Below, piece by piece: positions 3,793-58,276 of a stretch of 64,000 nt of DNA. The notes beneath the pieces are model-generated. The model worked only from the letters and a program-made list of their open reading frames with translations. It was not told the DNA's origin and ran no database searches. The stretch is from Candidatus Woesearchaeota archaeon (GTDB lineage: Archaea; Nanobdellota; Nanobdellia; SCGC-AAA011-G17; JACPIM01). The translations under genes were made by a program, and so were the position numbers. Positions within the stretch are counted from its first letter, which is position 1, and each line of letters opens with the position of its first letter. The stretch is taken from assembly GCA_043817645.1 (NCBI GenBank), contig JBDRGP010000029.1, forward strand, positions 58,226 through 122,225, read 5' to 3'.

Positions 3793-3865
3793 ATCAAAAA
3801 TCTGCGAATATTTGTTTATAAACTTTATGAAAACCTTTAAAAATGAATTTATCTTTATTCAGAGA

Positions 3866-3964
3866 AGCAGAGTAGAACAGAATTGCCTTAAAGGTAGTGT
3901 TCAATCAGGAGTGTTCGCTGGGCTCATAACCCAGAGGTCGTTGGTTCAAATCCAACCTCTGCTA
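3866..3964 (+). tRNA. Initiator tRNA-Met (anticodon CAT, 3925-3927) with an apparent ~24-nt insertion in the D-loop (non-canonical intron)
   Basis: Folded by hand. The acceptor is agcagag/ctctgct with an A1:U72 pair. The D-stem is gaac(3875-78)/gttc(3913-16). The anticodon arm is ctggg-CTCATAA-cccag, with the GGG:CCC pairs typical of archaeal initiator tRNA. The T-arm is gttgg-TTCAAAT-ccaac and the discriminator is A. 34 nt lie between the D-stem halves, where 8-11 are expected. Confidence 0.65.
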
Positions 3965-3970
3965 GCGAAT

Positions 3971-4002
3971 CCAGGAGTTTTACTACTCTTGGATTTTTTT
4001 TA
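3971..4002 (+). terminator. Hairpin (ccaggag...ctcttgg) followed by a T9 tract immediately 3' of the tRNA
   Basis: The hairpin has a 7-bp stem with one G:U. A T-run follows, as is typical of archaeal termination signals. Confidence 0.45.
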
Positions 4003-4078
4003 TTTACTTTTTGCCATTCTCTAAATTTTTTAATGTGCTTCGACTGCCTAAATTTAATAATTCTTATTGTGATACTTT

Positions 4079-4276
4079 TTAACCCTTATTTTTAATCTTC
4101 AAATAGCGTCCAACAGACAATTTACAAGCCCTAGCATTCCTTATTTGACTATCAATAATTACCTTCTGTTGTTCACTCCAAACTTCATCAGGATTATTTT
4201 TAACATAATTAGCCCAGTAGTCTACAAAGTTCATCCTATCTTCTTTATTATCCCTACCAGGTTTAAGTTTTTTCAT
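4079..4276 (-). CDS. Hypothetical small protein
   Basis: 65 aa. It overlaps the upstream nucleotidyltransferase ORF by 14 nt. No recognisable family. Confidence 0.35.
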   Translation of the reverse strand: MKKLKPGRDNKEDRMNFVDYWANYVKNNPDEVWSEQQKVIIDSQIRNARACKLSVGRYLKIKNKG

Positions 4277-4889
4277 TTTCTATAAGTCTCTTATAATCAT
4301 CAATCTTTTTAAAATCTATCTTTTCTCCAAACACTTCTTCAATATGCTTCGCATCTTCTAAATCCTTATCAGATTTTAAATAATACTTCTTGAAGGCTAT
4401 TTGCTTCTCCAATGAAGAAACATAAACCTCACTAAGTTTAGTTATAACAGTAATCCTATCGCTGAACGTTTCTTTTGCTAACCTATCTTTCGCAACTTTA
4501 ACTTCAAAATTTGGAATAGTTTCATTTTTTAAAGCAAAGCGTATTGCCAGATCATCCATTAGATATTTATACATTTCATCAACATTACTCGTATTTAAAC
4601 ACCAGAATCCATTTTCTATTAAATCACTACAAAGAAGATTAAACTTCTCTTTATTTACTTCCTTAATAAAAACGTCTACGTCCTCAGTAGACCTGGACCT
4701 CCCAAACAAAATAGAAACATATCCGCTAACAATAACGTAATCTGTATGCTTTTCCAGTATTTTTGTAAACTTGACCACAAATCTATCTAATTCATTTATG
4801 ACCTTGTCTAACCTTATAGTGCTCTTGTCAATAAATTCCATAGAATAAATAAAGTCTTTAATTTTATAAACCCTGCGCGTGTTTGTCAC
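4263..4889 (-). CDS. Nucleotidyltransferase-fold protein (Pol-beta-like NTase domain)
   Basis: 208 aa. VIVSGYVSILFGRSRSTEDVDVFI fits the hG[GS]x9-13Dh[DE]h NTase signature. Confidence 0.55.
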   Translation of the reverse strand: MTNTRRVYKIKDFIYSMEFIDKSTIRLDKVINELDRFVVKFTKILEKHTDYVIVSGYVSILFGRSRSTEDVDVFIKEVNKEKFNLLCSDLIENGFWCLNTSNVDEMYKYLMDDLAIRFALKNETIPNFEVKVAKDRLAKETFSDRITVITKLSEVYVSSLEKQIAFKKYYLKSDKDLEDAKHIEEVFGEKIDFKKIDDYKRLIENEKT

Positions 4890-4962
4890 GTATGCGTCGT
4901 TCAGAAAATATATATTGAAGAATACATAACAAAATAATACCAGTAAGGCCTAACTAAAACAA

Positions 4963-5223
4963 ATGGAAATCAAAAAGAAAGCCTGGCCAGAATTATTCCA
5001 AGCTGTTTTAGAAGGAAAAAAGAAATTTGATCTTAGATTGGCAGATTTTGAATGCGCTCCAGGAGATACACTAATTCTTGAAGAATGGGATCCAGATACT
5101 AAATCCTACACAGGAAGAAAAATAGAAAAGAAAATAACCTATATCCTTAAAACAAAAGACCTAAAATTTTGGCCTAAGGAAGATATAGAAAAACACGGAT
5201 TTCAGGTCATGTCTTTTGAATAA
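4963..5223 (+). CDS. DUF3850 / ASCH-PUA-like small RNA-binding-fold protein
   Basis: 86 aa. WPELFQAVLEGKKKFDLRLADFECAPGDTLILEEWDPDTKSYTGRKIEKKITYIL matches the conserved DUF3850 pattern (WPEYFEAV..GKKTFE.R..D..F.VGD.L.L.EY). Confidence 0.6.
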   Translation: MEIKKKAWPELFQAVLEGKKKFDLRLADFECAPGDTLILEEWDPDTKSYTGRKIEKKITYILKTKDLKFWPKEDIEKHGFQVMSFE

Positions 5224-13085: not shown

Positions 13086-13244
13086 ATGAAAGTTATGAAA
13101 GTGGTTGATAAAAAAGTGGGAAATACGACTTATTTCAAATATAGGATCAATCTACCGAAAGAGGCAGTTGAGAAACTAAATCTCCTCGATAAAAATCTAA
13201 AAGTGAAAGTTGAGAAAGGCAAGATTATAATAGAGAAGGAGTAG
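13086..13244 (+). CDS. AbrB/SpoVT (swapped-hairpin) family small DNA-binding protein, not in the ORF track
   Basis: The translation is MKVMKVVDKKVGNTTYFKYRINLPKEAVEKLNLLDKNLKVKVEKGKIIIEKE (52 aa). This resembles AbrB/MazE-type looped-hinge-helix domains. Confidence 0.45.
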   Translation: MKVMKVVDKKVGNTTYFKYRINLPKEAVEKLNLLDKNLKVKVEKGKIIIEKE

Positions 13245-13277
13245 CAATTCGGGTACCGATAAGTTTATATAGTTCGG

Positions 13278-14156
13278 GTGCCTAATTATAGCATGAAAGA
13301 TGCTATAAAATGTAAACATTGTTCAAGTTCGAACTTTTGCAAGAAAGGATTTAGAAAGACAGATTATCGAGGGAAAATTCAAAAATATTATTGTAAAAAC
13401 TGTAAGAGATTCTTTACAAATGATGAGGGGTTTTATAGAATGAGATTTAATCCTAAAACGATAACCATGTCTGTTGATATGTATTTATCAAATCTATCAT
13501 CAAGAAAGATGAGAAACCAATTAACAAGGCACTTCTCGATAAAAGCCAGTCACATGACTATACTAGACTGGGTTAGAAGATATAGCTTGAAAGTTCATAA
13601 GTTTGTTGAGAACTTAGGTTACAATCTTGGAAATCATTTTTATGCAGATGAAACGGAGATTAATAGATTAGGACACAGAGATAATTTCTGGGCTTGTGTT
13701 GATTGGGACACAAGAATGATAACAGGAATACATTACTCTGTTGCTACAAATATAAAAGAAGCAACAGTTTTCATACAGAAATCAGTTAGCAAAGGAAAAC
13801 CAAAATACATTCAAACAGATTCGGCTCAGTTTTACCCGAAAGCGTTCAAGAAATTATTTTATTCAAATAAAATTGGTGGCTTGGTAGTAGAGCATAAAAT
13901 ACAAAATGTTAGAAAAACTAAGATACATAACTATAAGATAGAAACCGTTTTCATGAAAATAAAAGATAGAGTCCATGATTTTAGGGGACTAAAGGCCTTA
14001 TGGTCTGCTCCAATAATCATGACTGGTTTAACAATACAGCATAATTTCATAGAACCTCATTGTAATAAACAAGAGTTTCCTTGTAACCTTGCTGGAGTTG
14101 ATTTAGGTTTAAAAGAAAACAGATGGTTGGATTTAATAAGGATGAGTTCACGATGA
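13278..14156 (+). CDS. IS6-family transposase (archaeal type with N-terminal zinc finger)
   Basis: 292 aa. The N-terminal CKHCSSSNFC...CKNCKRF is a Zn finger. The DDE region includes ADETEI, and length and organisation are typical of archaeal IS6. Confidence 0.7.
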   Translation: MPNYSMKDAIKCKHCSSSNFCKKGFRKTDYRGKIQKYYCKNCKRFFTNDEGFYRMRFNPKTITMSVDMYLSNLSSRKMRNQLTRHFSIKASHMTILDWVRRYSLKVHKFVENLGYNLGNHFYADETEINRLGHRDNFWACVDWDTRMITGIHYSVATNIKEATVFIQKSVSKGKPKYIQTDSAQFYPKAFKKLFYSNKIGGLVVEHKIQNVRKTKIHNYKIETVFMKIKDRVHDFRGLKALWSAPIIMTGLTIQHNFIEPHCNKQEFPCNLAGVDLGLKENRWLDLIRMSSR

Positions 14157-14170
14157 TAAACAGTTATTCA

Positions 14171-15103
14171 TTAAACTTTTCGCCACACATCCCTGTATAA
14201 TTTAGTGGGAGTTCCTTTGCCCTCCCAATCTCTGAATTGTTTCATCCACGCCTGGGATACGAATAGATCATCTAGAAATCCTATTGTCTGTTTAGGGCTC
14301 TTTACAAATTTACCTGCCAAAACTGCCCATGCCTTTGGATTAACCATAGATGTCCTTTTTCCATCATTAAGCCACGTCTCAGAAGTTATATGATAGTCTT
14401 CGGTTCCATCTTCTCTACTTTCAAGCTCAAAGTAACCTCTTGCACACTCCCCAAGTTGATTCGTAGTAGGATACCACCCTCCAAAATCTCTAGCTATTTG
14501 AGCGCAATGATAATCCAAGGTCCCTCTTTTAAAATTGCTTGGCCCCTTCACAATCTCCTTTGGATCAAAAGAGAATCCATCATTAAAGTGGACTATCGTG
14601 GTTGCAAATTTTCCTTTTGGCTTGAGAATCATGTGAACTAATTTAAACATTTCTTGATATATTTGATCTTGCTTACCTTCTACAGCATCTTGAACTTGTA
14701 CAAAGTGTTCAGCAGATCCATTAGCAATAACTCCATCAAAAGAATTAGCCCAAGAATCCGGCATATTTCTGTAATTCATTAACCTAACATCCAAACCATT
14801 CTTAACACACCTTCTAGCTTGTTTTTCTGATACGGTGATACCAACTGCAATGGTCCCCCGGTTCTCTGCGGTTTTTAAAACTCTTCCATATCCACATCCA
14901 ATATCCAGAATTCTAGCTCCGCTACCACAACCTATCTGATCAAGTAACCAATTAGCTTGGTTTTCTTGAGCTTTCTGGTATGATTGCTCAGGATCTCCGT
15001 TGTAAACCCCATCCGTAAAATCTGAAATCCCGCAAGAGGCAAATGCATCTAAGAAATCATAGCAACTCATAACTGCCTGAGAGGTATTTTCTATATCTTC
15101 CAT
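14171..15103 (-). CDS. SAM-dependent methyltransferase of the cyclopropane-fatty-acyl-phospholipid synthase / mycolic-acid cyclopropane synthase family
   Basis: 310 aa. The SAM motif ARILDIGCGYGRV is followed by TIAVGITVSEKQ and later SFDGVIANGSAEHF. The arrangement is collinear with CmaA/Cfa enzymes. Confidence 0.65.
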   Translation of the reverse strand: MEDIENTSQAVMSCYDFLDAFASCGISDFTDGVYNGDPEQSYQKAQENQANWLLDQIGCGSGARILDIGCGYGRVLKTAENRGTIAVGITVSEKQARRCVKNGLDVRLMNYRNMPDSWANSFDGVIANGSAEHFVQVQDAVEGKQDQIYQEMFKLVHMILKPKGKFATTIVHFNDGFSFDPKEIVKGPSNFKRGTLDYHCAQIARDFGGWYPTTNQLGECARGYFELESREDGTEDYHITSETWLNDGKRTSMVNPKAWAVLAGKFVKSPKQTIGFLDDLFVSQAWMKQFRDWEGKGTPTKLYRDVWRKV

Positions 15104-15217
15104 CTTAAAGATTGAATTTTATAAATACTTATAAACATTTATCTGATGGAATGATATAAAATTTTAACTAAGATATATCATCTAAAGATCATCTTACCAG
15201 TCTAGATGACGTTTACT

Positions 15218-15235
15218 TTACAGCTCACAAAAAAC
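15218..15235. repeat. 18-bp direct repeat TTACAGCTCACAAAAAAC, right copy
   Basis: It is identical to 12993-13010. An adjacent 7-bp inverted repeat tcatcta/tagatga lies at 15178-15209. Confidence 0.6.
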
Positions 15236-15283
15236 ATATATTTAAATACCCAAATTCCCATATTCTTAGTACAATGAAACGAG

Positions 15284-16471
15284 TTGATTGTTTTCATAAA
15301 TTCGTATTCTAGAGATTTTAATAGTTATAACTTTATTAAAAATCCCAAAAATAGTTTCCCCAAAAGTGGTCTAACCGTCAGAACGAAAACATTTAAATAT
15401 GCCAAAGTCTTTTATGAGTTTATGGAAAAAAGAGTGGTATTCCCAAAAGGGAAACAAAGGGAGTTTTTAGTCTCTTCAAGAAAAGAACTAAAACTAACCT
15501 GGCCGGAATTTGCTGAAAAAGTCGATACAAAAAGAAAAACTCTAGAAAAGGCCTATAGATATGAATATTGTTCGATGCCATATGGGGTTTTTTCTAAAAT
15601 AGTTAATGAAAGAAACATCAATAAAAAGAGACTTATTAGAGATTATAATATCAAAATAGTAAAAGGAAGTAGATATGGTGCAATTGGAAGGAAGGTGTTA
15701 GGAGAAAAAAGAGCGAAATTAGGCAATATCAACCTTTTATTTGAAAATTCTATACATCCATTTAACACTAGCGTTATAAAATTAAGCAAATATGATGAAA
15801 TTAAGAGAATAAAATTTCCAAATAAATTAACTCCAGAATTAGCTGAAGAAATCGGCATGCATATAGGAGACGGTTTTTTATCCAAAAGAAGGAACGAATA
15901 TCGTTTAAAGGGGAATAAAAATAACGAAAAAGATTACTACAAATACTTCATCAAAAAGCTTTACAAGACTTTGTTTAATTTAGATATTAATCTAAAAGAA
16001 TATGAATCGACATATGGATTTGAAATAAGCTCAAAAGGTCTCTGGACATTTAAAAATAAAATTTTGGGTATTCCATCAGGGAAAAAAGATGATATAGATT
16101 TGCCCGCAATTATAAAAGTGAATGACAAAGATATCCTAACTTCATTTATCCGAGGAGTTTTTGACACAGATGGTTGTGTTAACTTCAAAAGTGGATACGG
16201 TCTAAAGGGATATTACCCAAGAATAGAGATAACAATGCTCTCAAAAGATTTAATAGGGAGCATATCGGAGATATTATATGCATTGGGATTAAAACCATAT
16301 AAGCATCAAGATAAACTAGGATATTGGCATATTACTTTAAATGGCTATGAAAGATTTGAAAGATATAATAAATTAATAGGATGGCATAATCCCAAACACT
16401 TAAGAAAGATAAAAAAATGGAAAAAACAATATCCAAAATTAGGAAAGGATGTAATGGTAGGGGTAGTGTAG
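15284..16471 (+). CDS. Free-standing LAGLIDADG homing endonuclease (two LAGLIDADG motifs) with a ~180-aa N-terminal extension
   Basis: The motifs are IGMHIGDGFL and IRGVFDTDGCV. The last ~5 codons and the stop run into the 5' end of the tRNA-His gene. Confidence 0.7.
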   Translation: MIVFINSYSRDFNSYNFIKNPKNSFPKSGLTVRTKTFKYAKVFYEFMEKRVVFPKGKQREFLVSSRKELKLTWPEFAEKVDTKRKTLEKAYRYEYCSMPYGVFSKIVNERNINKKRLIRDYNIKIVKGSRYGAIGRKVLGEKRAKLGNINLLFENSIHPFNTSVIKLSKYDEIKRIKFPNKLTPELAEEIGMHIGDGFLSKRRNEYRLKGNKNNEKDYYKYFIKKLYKTLFNLDINLKEYESTYGFEISSKGLWTFKNKILGIPSGKKDDIDLPAIIKVNDKDILTSFIRGVFDTDGCVNFKSGYGLKGYYPRIEITMLSKDLIGSISEILYALGLKPYKHQDKLGYWHITLNGYERFERYNKLIGWHNPKHLRKIKKWKKQYPKLGKDVMVGVV

Positions 16472-16546
16472 CCTGGTTAGTTTTTACCCAGAAAACACGC
16501 AAGTCTGTGGAGCTTGAGATCGCGGGTTCAAGTCCCGCCCCTTACC
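16456..16546 (+). tRNA. tRNA-His (anticodon GTG, 16507-16509) with encoded G-1 and an apparent ~14-nt insertion in the D-loop
   Basis: Folded by hand. G-1 pairs with C73. The acceptor is gtagggg/cccttac, and the D-stem is gtgt(16466-69)/acac(16495-98). The anticodon arm is caagt-CTGTGGA-gcttg, and the T-arm is gcggg-TTCAAGT-cccgc. 25 nt lie between the D-stem halves, and the insert can form a gtttt/aaaac hairpin. Confidence 0.6.
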
Positions 16547-16568
16547 CGTTTTCAAAAAAGAGGTCAAA

Positions 16569-17825
16569 ATGAAACTTGAAAGATGTAAAGGAACAGTAGA
16601 TTTTCCACCAGAACAAAAAATAGCAAGAGAAGAAATAGTAAGTACCCTAACAAAAGTATTCAAAAAATACGGTTTTGACCCTTTAGAAACCCCAATTTTA
16701 GAGAGATATGATACCTTATCAGCAAATTACGCAGGAGGCGCAGAAATCCTTAAAGAAACCTTCCGATTGAAAGACCAGGGTAATAGAAGTTTAGGATTAA
16801 GATATGACCTAACAGTTCCTTTAGCGAGATTTATTGCAATGAATCCTCAAATTGCATTCCCATTTAAAAGATATCAAATAGAAAAAGTATTCAGAGATGG
16901 CCCAATAACAAGAGCAAGAATAAGGGAATTCTATCAATGTGACGTAGATGTAGTAGGAAGCAGATCTCTATCATACGATGCTGAACTAATCCAACTTTCT
17001 CTAGATGCCTTAAAAGCTCTAAAATTAAAATGCATCATAAAAGTAAATAATAGAAAATTACTAAATGAAATTGTAGATTACGCAGGAATAAAAAAGGATC
17101 CCAATTCAGTAATCTTAGTCATAGACAAATTATACAAAATTGGCAAAGAGGGCGTTGAAAAAGAATTAAAAGAACTAGGGCTAAAAGAAGAGCAAATTAA
17201 AAAAATCACAAAAACTATCTCAGTAAAAGGCACTAACAAAGAAAAACTAGAAAAAATCTCAAAAATAATAAACAAAGAGGGCATAAAAGAACTCAAAGAA
17301 GTTTTAAAATATTTCGAAAAAGATGTTGAATTTGATCCAACATTGGCAAGAGGCCTAGCTTACTACACAGGAACGGTTTTTGAAATTGTCTTAAAAAATA
17401 AAGACTTGGGCTGCAGTGTTGGCGGCGGTGGAAGATATGACAAAATGATTGGAAGTTTTGTTGGAAAAGGAGAAATTCCTGCTACAGGCATCTCATTTGG
17501 ATTAGAACCTCTAAGTTACTGCATAAGCAAATTAAGAAAAGGAAAAAAGACAAATACAGAATTATTCATAATACCTATAAAAACCACAGAAAAGTCCTTA
17601 AAAATTGCTAAGAAATTAAGAGATTCCAATATCAACACAGACATAGACCTAAATAATAGAAACATCTCAAAAAACCTAAATTATGCAAATAAAAAAGATA
17701 TCCCTTATGTTCTATTCATAGGAGAAAAAGAACTAAAACAAAAGAAATTCAAATTAAGAAACATGATCACAGGAAAAGAACAATTATTCACATTAGAAAA
17801 ACTAACAAAATATCTAAAAAACTAG
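16569..17825 (+). CDS. hisS: Histidine--tRNA ligase
   Basis: 418 aa. It has the class II aaRS motifs and RGLAYYTGTVFE; GGGRYD is present, plus a C-terminal anticodon-binding domain. Confidence 0.9.
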   Translation: MKLERCKGTVDFPPEQKIAREEIVSTLTKVFKKYGFDPLETPILERYDTLSANYAGGAEILKETFRLKDQGNRSLGLRYDLTVPLARFIAMNPQIAFPFKRYQIEKVFRDGPITRARIREFYQCDVDVVGSRSLSYDAELIQLSLDALKALKLKCIIKVNNRKLLNEIVDYAGIKKDPNSVILVIDKLYKIGKEGVEKELKELGLKEEQIKKITKTISVKGTNKEKLEKISKIINKEGIKELKEVLKYFEKDVEFDPTLARGLAYYTGTVFEIVLKNKDLGCSVGGGGRYDKMIGSFVGKGEIPATGISFGLEPLSYCISKLRKGKKTNTELFIIPIKTTEKSLKIAKKLRDSNINTDIDLNNRNISKNLNYANKKDIPYVLFIGEKELKQKKFKLRNMITGKEQLFTLEKLTKYLKN

Positions 17826-57088: not shown

Positions 57089-58276
57089 ATGAATTTATTT
57101 GAAGAATTTGGCTTAAGCCATGAGTTATTAACATCAATTAAAGAATTGGGGATTACTACTCCAACTCAAATCCAAGGATTATCAATTAAGGATATAATCT
57201 CAGGAAAGGATATTATAGGAGAATCAGCTACTGGTTCTGGTAAAACACTAGCTTTTGGCTGCGGTATAGTGGAACAAATTATGCCTAAAGAGGGATTACA
57301 GGCTATGATTTTGACTCCTACAAGAGAACTTGCTGAGCAGGTTAAGGGATCATTGAGACAACTTTCGAATAAGAAAGGTTTGAATGTTACTTCTGTTTGT
57401 GGAGGGGCTGCGATAAACCCACAGGTTAAAGATTTGTTAAGGGCTGAGGTTGTAGTTGCTACTCCTGGCAGACTATTAGACCATCTTAGGAGAGGGTCTG
57501 TTAATTTATCAAAGATTAAGTTGCTTGTTTTAGATGAGGCTGATAGAATGTTTGATATGGGATTTATTGAGGATGTGGAAAAAATTATTCATGCTTGTCC
57601 TAAAAAGAGACAAACTTTATTTTTTTCTGCTACGATTTCAATGAGAGTGAGAGATCTTGCTAAAATGTACATGGTTGATCCAAAAAAAGTTTCGGCAGTG
57701 AATCAGGTTGATCCCAGTAAATTGAAACAGGTTTATTATGACTTGCAAAGGAATATGAAACTTTCTTTACTTGCACACTTATTGCAACAGGAAAAATCAG
57801 GGCTGGTTATGGTTTTTTGTAATACTAGAAGAAACACTGATTTTGTTACTAAAACTCTTAGAGCAAATAGGATTAATGCAATATCAGTTCACGGTGGTTT
57901 ATCTCAAAATAAGAGAAATCGGACTATTGAATTGTTTAATGGTGCGAAAGTGGGTGTTTTAGTTTGTACTGATGTTGCTGCCAGAGGTTTGCATATTGAT
58001 AATGTGTCTCACGTGTATAATTATGATCTTCCAAAGGATGCAAAGGACTATGTTCATAGGATAGGAAGAACAGCCAGGGCTGGTGAAGAAGGAAAGGCAG
58101 TCAGCCTTTTATGTGATTTTGACTATCCCAATTTTTCTAGGATACAAGAAGAATACCCGGGATTTGTGATTGATAAGATGGAAAGGCCTTATATTCAGAA
58201 ATTGGCAGTAATGCGGATGGATAATCAGAGAAGACCTCCTTTTAGAAGGGGTAATTCTGGGTTTAGACGTAGGTGA
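57089..58276 (+). CDS. DEAD-box ATP-dependent RNA helicase
   Basis: 395 aa. It has Q-motif, GSGKT, PTRELA, DEAD (VLDEADRM), SAT, and HRIGRTARAG. Confidence 0.85.
   Translation: MNLFEEFGLSHELLTSIKELGITTPTQIQGLSIKDIISGKDIIGESATGSGKTLAFGCGIVEQIMPKEGLQAMILTPTRELAEQVKGSLRQLSNKKGLNVTSVCGGAAINPQVKDLLRAEVVVATPGRLLDHLRRGSVNLSKIKLLVLDEADRMFDMGFIEDVEKIIHACPKKRQTLFFSATISMRVRDLAKMYMVDPKKVSAVNQVDPSKLKQVYYDLQRNMKLSLLAHLLQQEKSGLVMVFCNTRRNTDFVTKTLRANRINAISVHGGLSQNKRNRTIELFNGAKVGVLVCTDVAARGLHIDNVSHVYNYDLPKDAKDYVHRIGRTARAGEEGKAVSLLCDFDYPNFSRIQEEYPGFVIDKMERPYIQKLAVMRMDNQRRPPFRRGNSGFRRR

Follow-up and report, generated by a model that had tools for sequence, protein, structure and literature searches.

In the genome of a woesearchaeon, a small archaeon of the DPANN group, a gene encoding a LAGLIDADG homing endonuclease stands free of any intron or intein, and its 3' end runs directly into the gene for tRNA-His, which is followed in turn by hisS. 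The DNA analyzed here, referred to as the window, is a stretch of 64,000 nucleotides from Candidatus Woesearchaeota archaeon (contig JBDRGP010000029.1, positions 58,226 to 122,225 of the forward strand), and all coordinates given below are positions within it. LAGLIDADG enzymes of archaea are known chiefly from rRNA introns and inteins, and the question raised by this locus is what a free-standing member of the family is doing at the start of a tRNA gene. An earlier reading of the sequence alone (the sequence-only reading) had offered three answers: a homing endonuclease aimed at the tRNA or hisS region, a domesticated endonuclease, or the remnant of an intron-containing tRNA allele. Our analysis of related loci points to the first of these, in that the intact endonuclease gene is probably the one gene carried by a ~1.1-kb selfish cassette that sits within the 5' region of tRNA-His.

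The endonuclease gene and its overlap with tRNA-His

The free-standing LAGLIDADG open reading frame (ORF) described in the sequence-only reading is present at 15284..16471 on the forward strand, with its TAG stop codon at 16469-16471. The ORF translation matches the Pfam family LAGLIDADG_3 with an E value of 2e-10, and a search for the family with the window protein returned E values down to 1e-231, placing chance similarity far off. A database protein of 349 aa (P0001, carried by NCBI under the name LAGLIDADG family homing endonuclease, from a Woesearchaeota metagenome-assembled genome) is 100% identical, and this protein and all of the homologs begin at the position matching ATG 15422. This ATG is preferred because of the start of the identical protein and its homologs, the presence of a TATA box 22 nt before it, and the non-coding character of 15268-15368; the sequence therefore indicates a gene of 349 codons plus stop at 15422..16471 (+), and the TTG at 15284 is very probably the wrong start. 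The 46 codons upstream of ATG 15422 cover sequence that is also found in loci lacking the gene and almost certainly form no part of the translated endonuclease.

The tRNA-His(GTG) gene lies at 16456..16546 (+) and includes an encoded G-1. By hand reading, G-1 is at 16456 and G1 at 16457, the acceptor strands are GTAGGGG/CCCTTAC with a G-1:C73 pair, the anticodon loop is CTGTGGA with the GTG anticodon at 16507-16509, and the T arm is GCGGG/CCCGC. The same assignment is given by a minimum free energy fold, by ARAGORN once an insert has been removed, and by 17 other ORF-tRNA junctions in the clade of endonucleases associated with tRNA-His. The overlap between the two genes spans 16456-16471, exactly the 16 nt that had been claimed, and contains the last five codons and the TAG of the endonuclease gene. 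On the intact sequence ARAGORN called "Gly-ccc, 91 nt" in place of tRNA-His, and an Rfam scan of 15000-17000 (E<=1) detected no full-length tRNA, its output being limited to 18 nt of the T arm and a single match at chance level (E 0.78). Both the miscall and the miss are explained by a 14-nt insert in the D-loop at ~16480..16493 (+; boundaries +/- 1-2 nt), placed by the minimum free energy fold and ARAGORN, which had escaped the sequence-only reading. The fold places a 4-bp helix (CTGG/CCAG) within the insert, between 3-nt unpaired stretches, a relaxed bulge-helix-bulge, and with these 14 nt excised ARAGORN calls a canonical tRNA-His(gtg). The predicted structure makes a non-canonical intron, which would be removed by splicing, the probable identity of the insert. 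The four closest relatives (L094-L097) instead carry an intron after the anticodon, in the anticodon loop, which the tRNA-His of the window lacks.

Occupied and empty alleles of one site

The right flank of the endonuclease-tRNA pair is hisS (histidyl-tRNA synthetase, HisRS; 16569..17825, +), which is linked to tRNA-His in both occupied and empty relatives. At the loci of the four closest hisS homologs (L094-L097, with HisRS 69-76% identical), tRNA-His lies directly upstream of hisS and no endonuclease gene is present. Three of four more distant HisRS relatives are empty as well, and the fourth (L099) is occupied by a shorter version of the gene. The related genomes with an uninterrupted site, which the sequence-only reading had proposed to look for, thus make up seven of the eight hisS relatives sampled. 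Alignment of five occupied and four empty loci shows a left flank common to both kinds of allele at 15268..15368 (+), with the left insertion boundary at ~15369. Within this flank, pattern searches and alignment identify an upstream block at 15274..15312 (+), a mini-ORF of sequence MKRVDCFHKFVF followed by a stop codon, which is host sequence outside the cassette; TTG 15284 falls inside it in a different frame. The core of the block, AACGAGTTGATTGTTTTCAT (15278-15297), has a single occurrence in the window. At empty loci L094-L097 the block precedes tRNA-His by ~80-100 nt, and in L005, L006, L009, and L010, which are occupied, it precedes the start of the ORF by ~120-140 nt. After the block and a further ~60 nt, the tRNA follows within ~20 nt in empty loci, while ~1.1 kb intervenes in occupied ones. 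Because occupied and empty relatives have both flanks in common, the endonuclease gene represents a ~1.1-kb insertion or deletion, present or absent at one conserved site and patchy in its distribution.

The endonuclease and its neighbor also differ in their relationships. In occupied loci, HisRS is 36-54% identical to that of the window by tblastn (39-56% in pairwise alignments), and the endonucleases are 42-67% identical. L006 and L009 have HisRS proteins of 41% identity versus endonucleases of 64%, and L009 and L018 have HisRS proteins of 61% identity versus endonucleases of 47%; among 11 loci, similarity is higher for the endonuclease than for HisRS in 45 of 55 pairs. The endonuclease gene comes and goes at a precise site, and its history differs from that of a gene ~100 nt away.

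Clades of endonucleases correspond to tRNA identity

The family to which the window protein belongs is large: an exhaustive profile search gave 274 clusters with E<=1e-30, a number that rises to 2051 when E<=1e-10 is allowed. Most of the 150 best matches listed were core-only proteins or fragments, and in only ~12 of them did the profile span from the N-terminal domain through the core. Related loci were collected from genomes (5, with the single protein as query) and metagenomes (80, with an alignment as query), with several contigs added via exact protein look-up. They were scanned with ARAGORN (introns allowed) for a same-strand tRNA whose start lay between ~-40 and +100 nt relative to the point where the protein match ended. 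In ~78 of the 84 loci in which the ORF end is on the contig, a tRNA gene abuts the 3' end of the ORF. ARAGORN found a same-strand tRNA in 53, inspection by eye added 14 on the same strand and 11 on the opposite strand, and none was seen in six; the calls by eye are less secure than those of ARAGORN, and most of the 14 same-strand tRNAs have introns or are cut by the contig end. By a rough estimate for a 1-Mb genome with ~45 tRNAs, ~1% of gene ends would be expected to lie so close to a tRNA by chance.

A neighbor-joining tree of the nuclease cores resolves into clades that correspond to tRNA identity, comprising His (25 members, including the window), Arg(GCG) (18 members), Ile(GAT), Arg(TCG), and smaller groups. 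In the His clade, tRNA-His is flush downstream with an AT/GG junction in 18 loci, and the C-terminal tails of the endonucleases (VMVGVV, VMAVVA, MADVV, etc.) are translated tRNA, with some ORFs reading through the whole tRNA. Exceptions within the clade are L023, with an inverted, intron-containing tRNA-His at the ORF end, its sister L025, also with an opposite-strand tRNA, L001 and L019, with tRNA-His just upstream of the ORF, and L005, where the contig ends.

The protein retains a nuclease active site and carries a predicted DNA-binding domain

Two LAGLIDADG motifs were correctly noted from the sequence; the N-terminal extension, which had been put at ~180 aa, shrinks to ~135 aa before motif 1 when counted from ATG 15422. 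Motif 1 is EEIGMHIGDGFL, with the catalytic Asp D150 encoded by GAC at 15869-15871, and motif 2 is FIRGVFDTDGCV, with the catalytic Asp D250 encoded by GAT at 16169-16171. G149-D150-G151 and D248-T249-D250-G251 do not vary among 44 aligned family members that share 44-64% identity with the window protein, which answers the question of whether the acidic residues had been kept. The motif 1 GDG also appears in the listed N-termini of the Arg(TCG) and Ile(GAT) clades, and in the 44-sequence alignment conservation is high across much of the rest of the endonuclease, its N-terminal part included. The full protein was modeled with AlphaFold2 with a confidence (pLDDT) of 91, and in Foldseek searches of the PDB its core (~aa 130-340; 15809..16441, +) matched archaeal intein and intron endonucleases at E values of 4e-11 to 1e-6, led by the TliVMA intein endonuclease (4e-11) and I-Tsp061I (1e-9) and including PI-PfuI and I-DmoI. 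The archaeal intron endonuclease I-Tsp061I was also the sole PDB match to the ORF protein by sequence. The model thus assigns the protein to the monomeric two-motif LAGLIDADG fold, pseudo-symmetric with an alpha-beta-beta-alpha-beta-beta-alpha order, with both acidic active-site residues kept.

The N-terminal part, for which a profile search had been suggested, is predicted to form a helix-turn-helix (HTH) domain of the XRE/Cro type at ~aa 1-82 (15422..15667, +). Pfam gave weak matches to HTH_19 and HTH_26, and the first 80 residues modeled alone (pLDDT 82) matched C.BclI, HipB, C.Esp1396I, and 434 Cro in Foldseek, with TM-scores to target of 0.65-0.73 and root-mean-square deviations of ~2 Å at E values of only ~0.02. 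Restriction-modification controller proteins are among these matches. At L099, the occupied tRNA-His site holds a 284-aa endonuclease (1565-2419) that starts just past the mini-ORF and a TATA box and lacks the HTH domain. Either the domain is dispensable for occupancy of the site or this copy is decaying.

The upstream edge of the cassette resembles the start of a tRNA gene

The TATA box of the cassette, TTTAAATA, which fits the archaeal consensus, lies at 15392..15399 (+), 22 nt upstream of the ATG, and a TATA-like octamer at a spacing of 21-22 nt recurs in the His and Arg(GCG) clades; it would serve as the promoter of a leaderless mRNA. At 15366..15385 (+), the sequence GTGGTCTAACCGTCAGAACG is a candidate decayed copy of the 5' part (D-arm) of tRNA-His, recognized through its positional match to better-kept remnants in relatives. 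The remnant of L013 is almost intact from -3 to ~position 26 (ATGGCGGATGTAGTTTAATGGTAGAACG), those of L012 and L016 are clearly recognizable, and only the D-arm part is seen in L014, L015, L017, L018, and L021. In the subgroup to which the window belongs the remnant has decayed further, and in the window itself the acceptor strand is wholly lost. When the 60 nt before the TATA box were compared to all tRNA-His 5' parts, with random 60-nt segments of the same loci as background, L012, L013, and L016 had empirical p values of <=0.0007, and five further loci, the window among them, had values of 0.009-0.03; no remnant was found in these 60 nt in L001 or L008. In a wider search of 500 nt upstream, which is less informative than the 60-nt search, only L078, L013, and L009 stand out (z 2.2-7.4), with L016 and L028 at z ~2 and the rest lower.

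The same layout is seen outside of the His clade. Arg(GCG) loci carry the tRNA-5'-like sequence GCCCCCATAGTTTAGCCTGGATAGAA, then a TATA box, 22 nt, and the ATG, and among Arg(TCG) loci a strong remnant (z 7.4) was found at one. The duplicated segments are short (~25 nt) and diverged, and in the Arg(GCG) clade the remnants are closer to each other than to the local tRNA, suggesting that the remnant travels with the cassette. The order of the unit is remnant, TATA box, ORF, and live tRNA, the 5' part of which overlaps the end of the ORF.

A model for homing into a tRNA gene

The proposal of a homing endonuclease aimed at the tRNA or hisS region is well supported by the conserved catalytic residues, the empty sites, the tRNA association, the tRNA-specific clades, and the discordance with HisRS. 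We propose that the cassette would extend over ~15369-16455 plus the tRNA 5' segment, that it would bring its own TATA box, and that it would end in a fresh 5' segment of tRNA-His, roughly nt -2 to 26. Because such a cassette carries a fresh segment, the last five codons and stop of its gene are tRNA sequence and the tRNA stays whole, while the displaced original 5' segment would survive as the decayed, D-arm-like remnant upstream of the TATA box. The enzyme would cut cassette-free tRNA-His genes, and the break would be repaired from an occupied allele, with the remnant and upstream flank as the left arm and the tRNA body and hisS as the right arm, such that the cassette is copied. Deletion of the cassette, and with it a return to the empty site, would follow from recombination of the remnant with the functional 5' copy, and sister clades would act likewise at other tRNAs. 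The remnant may be kept as a homology arm or as an operator bound by the enzyme or by the HTH domain, and, with the TATA box beside it, the remnant may serve together with that domain in autoregulation.

Several observations weigh against this proposal. We infer both the cleavage activity, which in enzymes of this class is directed at a specific DNA target of ~20 bp, and the target site; the live tRNA-His is complete in the occupied allele and would seem exposed to its own enzyme, and introns do not account for its protection. The homology arms within the tRNA are short. The protein is conserved unusually strongly for the product of a selfish gene, and the alignments contain no frameshifted copies of the endonuclease and only one truncated version (L099). 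The remnant in the window is only marginally significant (p 0.03), and remnants are conserved beyond neutral expectation, hinting at a function. Lateral transfer of HisRS itself would also produce discordance, and all of the comparisons are drawn from metagenomic contigs. Intron-based self-immunity was considered as a rule, along the lines of the collaborative homing reported for F-CphI, a free-standing endonuclease of cyanophages that acts at psbA, and was rejected, since the tRNAs of occupied loci L012-L018 and L021 are intron-free and the four closest empty alleles bear introns.

Alternative explanations

The strength of conservation, together with the resemblance of the N-terminal domain to XRE/Cro repressors and restriction-modification controller proteins, could be taken to mean that the protein is a domesticated HTH-LAGLIDADG host regulator of transcription of the adjacent tRNA, and perhaps hisS, comparable to WhiA or to restriction-modification controllers and no longer a mobile nuclease. 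Such a regulator would account for the strong purifying selection on the entire protein, for the conserved tRNA-like sequence that stands beside the TATA box in the manner of an operator, and for the semi-conserved NAC-ParA-hisS neighborhood. A host regulator would not be expected to keep both catalytic Asp residues invariant, to be dispensed with at the same site by seven of eight sampled hisS relatives (the four closest included), to form clades at different tRNAs while most tRNAs have none, to conflict with HisRS in its similarity, or to be replaced at the site by a shorter, HTH-less version. WhiA has lost its catalytic Asp residues, and domesticated proteins of its kind would be inherited universally and vertically within a lineage; here the Asp residues are invariant and occupancy is patchy, and a LAGLIDADG_WhiA match, itself weak, was obtained in only 1 of the 44 family members. 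We consider domestication, which the sequence-only reading had entertained, to be quite unlikely and do not favor it, given the intact active site, the patchy occupancy, and the clades at different tRNAs. Somewhat less improbable, although still unlikely in our judgment, is a cassette that is a passenger or relic, left by a single tRNA-targeted integration (e.g., by an integrase acting in trans, as in archaeal elements that integrate into tRNA genes) or by a local duplication, inherited vertically and repeatedly lost with precision by recombination between the two tRNA 5' copies, in which the endonuclease has ceased to drive movement or never drove it. Site-specific integration into tRNA genes leaves the same order, with a 5' fragment of the tRNA followed by the insert and then the complete tRNA (PMC3293823), direct repeats permit clean deletion and hence empty sites in the absence of homing, and the synteny with hisS is old and widespread. 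Such a history fits poorly with an insert of only ~1.1 kb that holds one gene and no integrase, with a nuclease active site that is intact across deep divergence, with disagreement between endonuclease and HisRS in both directions, which goes beyond what loss alone would give, and with the same design at several tRNAs, each with clade-specific enzymes.

The closest structural relatives of the protein are archaeal intron and intein endonucleases, tRNA introns sit at unusual positions in these archaea (the D-loop of tRNA-His in the window included), and the remnant ends near tRNA position 26. These facts raise the prospect that the ORF is still intron-encoded; the remnant would then be a functional 5' exon, and the ORF would lie in a very large tRNA intron excised by the splicing endonuclease. 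We regard this as very improbable indeed, as the downstream tRNA is complete and its own 5' strand pairs with its 3' acceptor strand, the window remnant lacks an acceptor strand, the acceptor of the Arg(GCG) remnant (GCCCCCA) cannot pair with the 3' strand of the live tRNA, and a TATA box lies between remnant and ORF. An ORF within an archaeal bulge-helix-bulge intron, flanked by exon halves that are ligated into the mature RNA, or an intron or intein location of any kind, is not what is seen at this locus, where the ORF stands alone behind a TATA box of its own and is followed by a complete tRNA. The suggestion that the locus is what remains of an intron-containing tRNA allele accordingly fails as it was put, because of the complete downstream tRNA and the TATA box, and survives in part, in that a decayed copy of the tRNA 5' end does lie upstream.

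Relation to known elements

The closest parallels to the homing cassette proposed here are the fungal mitochondrial mORFs of Allomyces macrogynus atp6 and of Glomus atp6, atp9, cox2, and nad3, which bring in a substitute for one end of the gene and leave the native end behind as a remnant; in Allomyces, the endonuclease has been shown biochemically to be responsible for mobility (PMC3630166). In both arrangements a free-standing endonuclease gene is paired with a duplicate of one end of the target gene, the hybrid target is functional, and the displaced end decays nearby. In the window the feature recognized at Allomyces atp6, a duplicated gene end with the native end as a remnant, appears in mirror image, at a 5' end and in a tRNA gene. 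Further differences of the window are its archaeal host, an ORF that overlaps the carried segment rather than being joined in frame to the gene, and a mobility that is inferred. Free-standing phage homing endonucleases such as T4 SegB, located in a tRNA gene cluster (PMC2330249), and MobE (PMC2790892) likewise lie in intergenic regions beside their targets and spread by break repair with co-conversion of flanking markers, in the case of SegB in a tRNA region. SegB and MobE are GIY-YIG and HNH enzymes of phages, and they show neither a duplicated tRNA segment nor a pattern of one clade per tRNA. With I-Tsp061I, I-DmoI, PI-PfuI, and TliVMA the window protein shares the monomeric two-motif fold and acidic residues at the motif ends; those enzymes sit in rRNA introns and inteins that are spliced out, whereas this one is encoded by a free-standing gene with its own TATA box and has an additional predicted HTH domain of the XRE type.

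The Caldiarchaeum tRNA-Thr locus contains, in order, a 5' tRNA fragment, a recombinase-bearing mobile insert, and an intact tRNA (PMC3293823), and this layout, shared with integration of the pNOB8 and SSV types, is also that of the window. The inserts at those loci rely for movement on site-specific recombination by a recombinase or an integrase that they encode, unlike the cassette, which encodes only a LAGLIDADG endonuclease. Autorepression by I-TevI acts through an operator that resembles its homing site, with both binding and repression shown (PMC2988022); the remnant and HTH domain of the cassette suggest a comparable arrangement, with a target-like sequence that overlaps or adjoins the promoter of the endonuclease.

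The protein class is already known, as the NCBI name LAGLIDADG family homing endonuclease indicates, and what appears to be new is the lifestyle, in which the gene is free-standing and flanks a tRNA, there is one clade per tRNA, a replacement segment is carried, and a remnant is retained. Our literature search found no description of the family or of the arrangement, and a large family with branches each located next to one particular tRNA gene has apparently not yet been described. Such a family would represent a new homing-endonuclease lifestyle in archaea and an RNA-gene counterpart of the fungal mitochondrial elements that replace gene ends. It would also provide a set of natural nucleases that probably recognize tRNA gene sequences, with empty and occupied alleles in hand, and it bears on the frequent interruption of tRNA genes in DPANN and other archaea. 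The arrangement further explains annotation problems, such as ORFs that run into or through tRNAs and the failure of standard tools to find tRNA-His. We advance only tentatively, as a doubtful extension, the broader idea of a LAGLIDADG radiation in DPANN archaea that uses tRNA genes as portable homing sites, with a replacement 5' segment and a tRNA-like left arm allowing it to cross divergent genomes that have no other homology, and that exerts pressure toward tRNA introns at odd positions. If true, this would directly support the old idea that the disruption of tRNA genes is tied to mobile elements that target them.

Additional features of the locus and the family

The mini-ORF upstream of the cassette is found at ~3779-3830 in L094, ~3800 in L095, ~47 in L096, ~122 in L097, and ~1552 in L099, and in L098, L100, and L101 it lies ~100 nt upstream of tRNA-His. 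Variants elsewhere read MNRVDFIH.., MKRVDCIH.., MLSRVDYIH (stop), and MAQKSDLVHGQ (stop). Its conserved part closes with a His codon, with the stop 0-7 codons farther on, and its Arg (CGA/AGA) and His (CAT/CAC) codons vary synonymously, suggesting that it is translated. It might be a histidine-sensing leader for tRNA-His and hisS, an idea that, with a single His codon, we offer only as a lead from the sequence.

The nearest relative of the window endonuclease in the tree is that of L001 (58% identical), where an intact, intron-free tRNA-His (3828-3901) lies ~100 nt upstream of the ORF (4001-5020), about where a remnant would be, and no tRNA lies downstream. The similarity of L001 to the window ends about where the tRNA of the window begins, and its layout may represent an alternative resolution of the duplicated arrangement. 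A tRNA on the opposite strand, with the ORF end meeting the tRNA 3' end, was seen in L023, L025, L042, L044, L045, L046, L053, L059, L068, L081, and L087.

A conserved stretch encoding YPxL, considered as a possible fixed-distance tRNA promoter inside the 3' end of the ORF, lies at variable distances from the tRNA start, and TATA-like strings are everywhere in DNA of 33% G+C. A tblastn search with the endonuclease protein found no paralogs in the full 64 kb of the window, and a second ORF of 395 aa at 57089, considered as a paralog, is unrelated to the endonuclease. A viral origin was set aside, as a scan of viral contigs gave only partial matches of 25-27% identity.

In L039, L049, and L050 of the Ile(GAT) clade, the core is directly preceded by, or fused to, a conserved coding sequence (..VTKFGTSAKVDCPKxYLG..VYL) located ~140 nt before it, which may resemble small AbrB-like "transposon-encoded" archaeal proteins. 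In another clade (L075, L076, L079, and L085), tRNAs broken by long inserts, apparently more than one in each, are located 150-200 nt past the ORF ends; they are not called by tools, and only the acceptor strands and T arm can be recognized by eye.

Upstream of the mini-ORF block, the window contains ORFs of 52 aa (13086-13244), 292 aa (13278-14156), and, on the minus strand, 310 aa (14171-15103). The second is presumably a transposase of the insertion sequence type and the third, we assume, a methyltransferase, both guesses being made from the sequence itself. In L006, L094, and L098, genes of the NAC and ParA types take the place of these ORFs, and the side of the locus spanning 13086-15103 may have undergone rearrangement.

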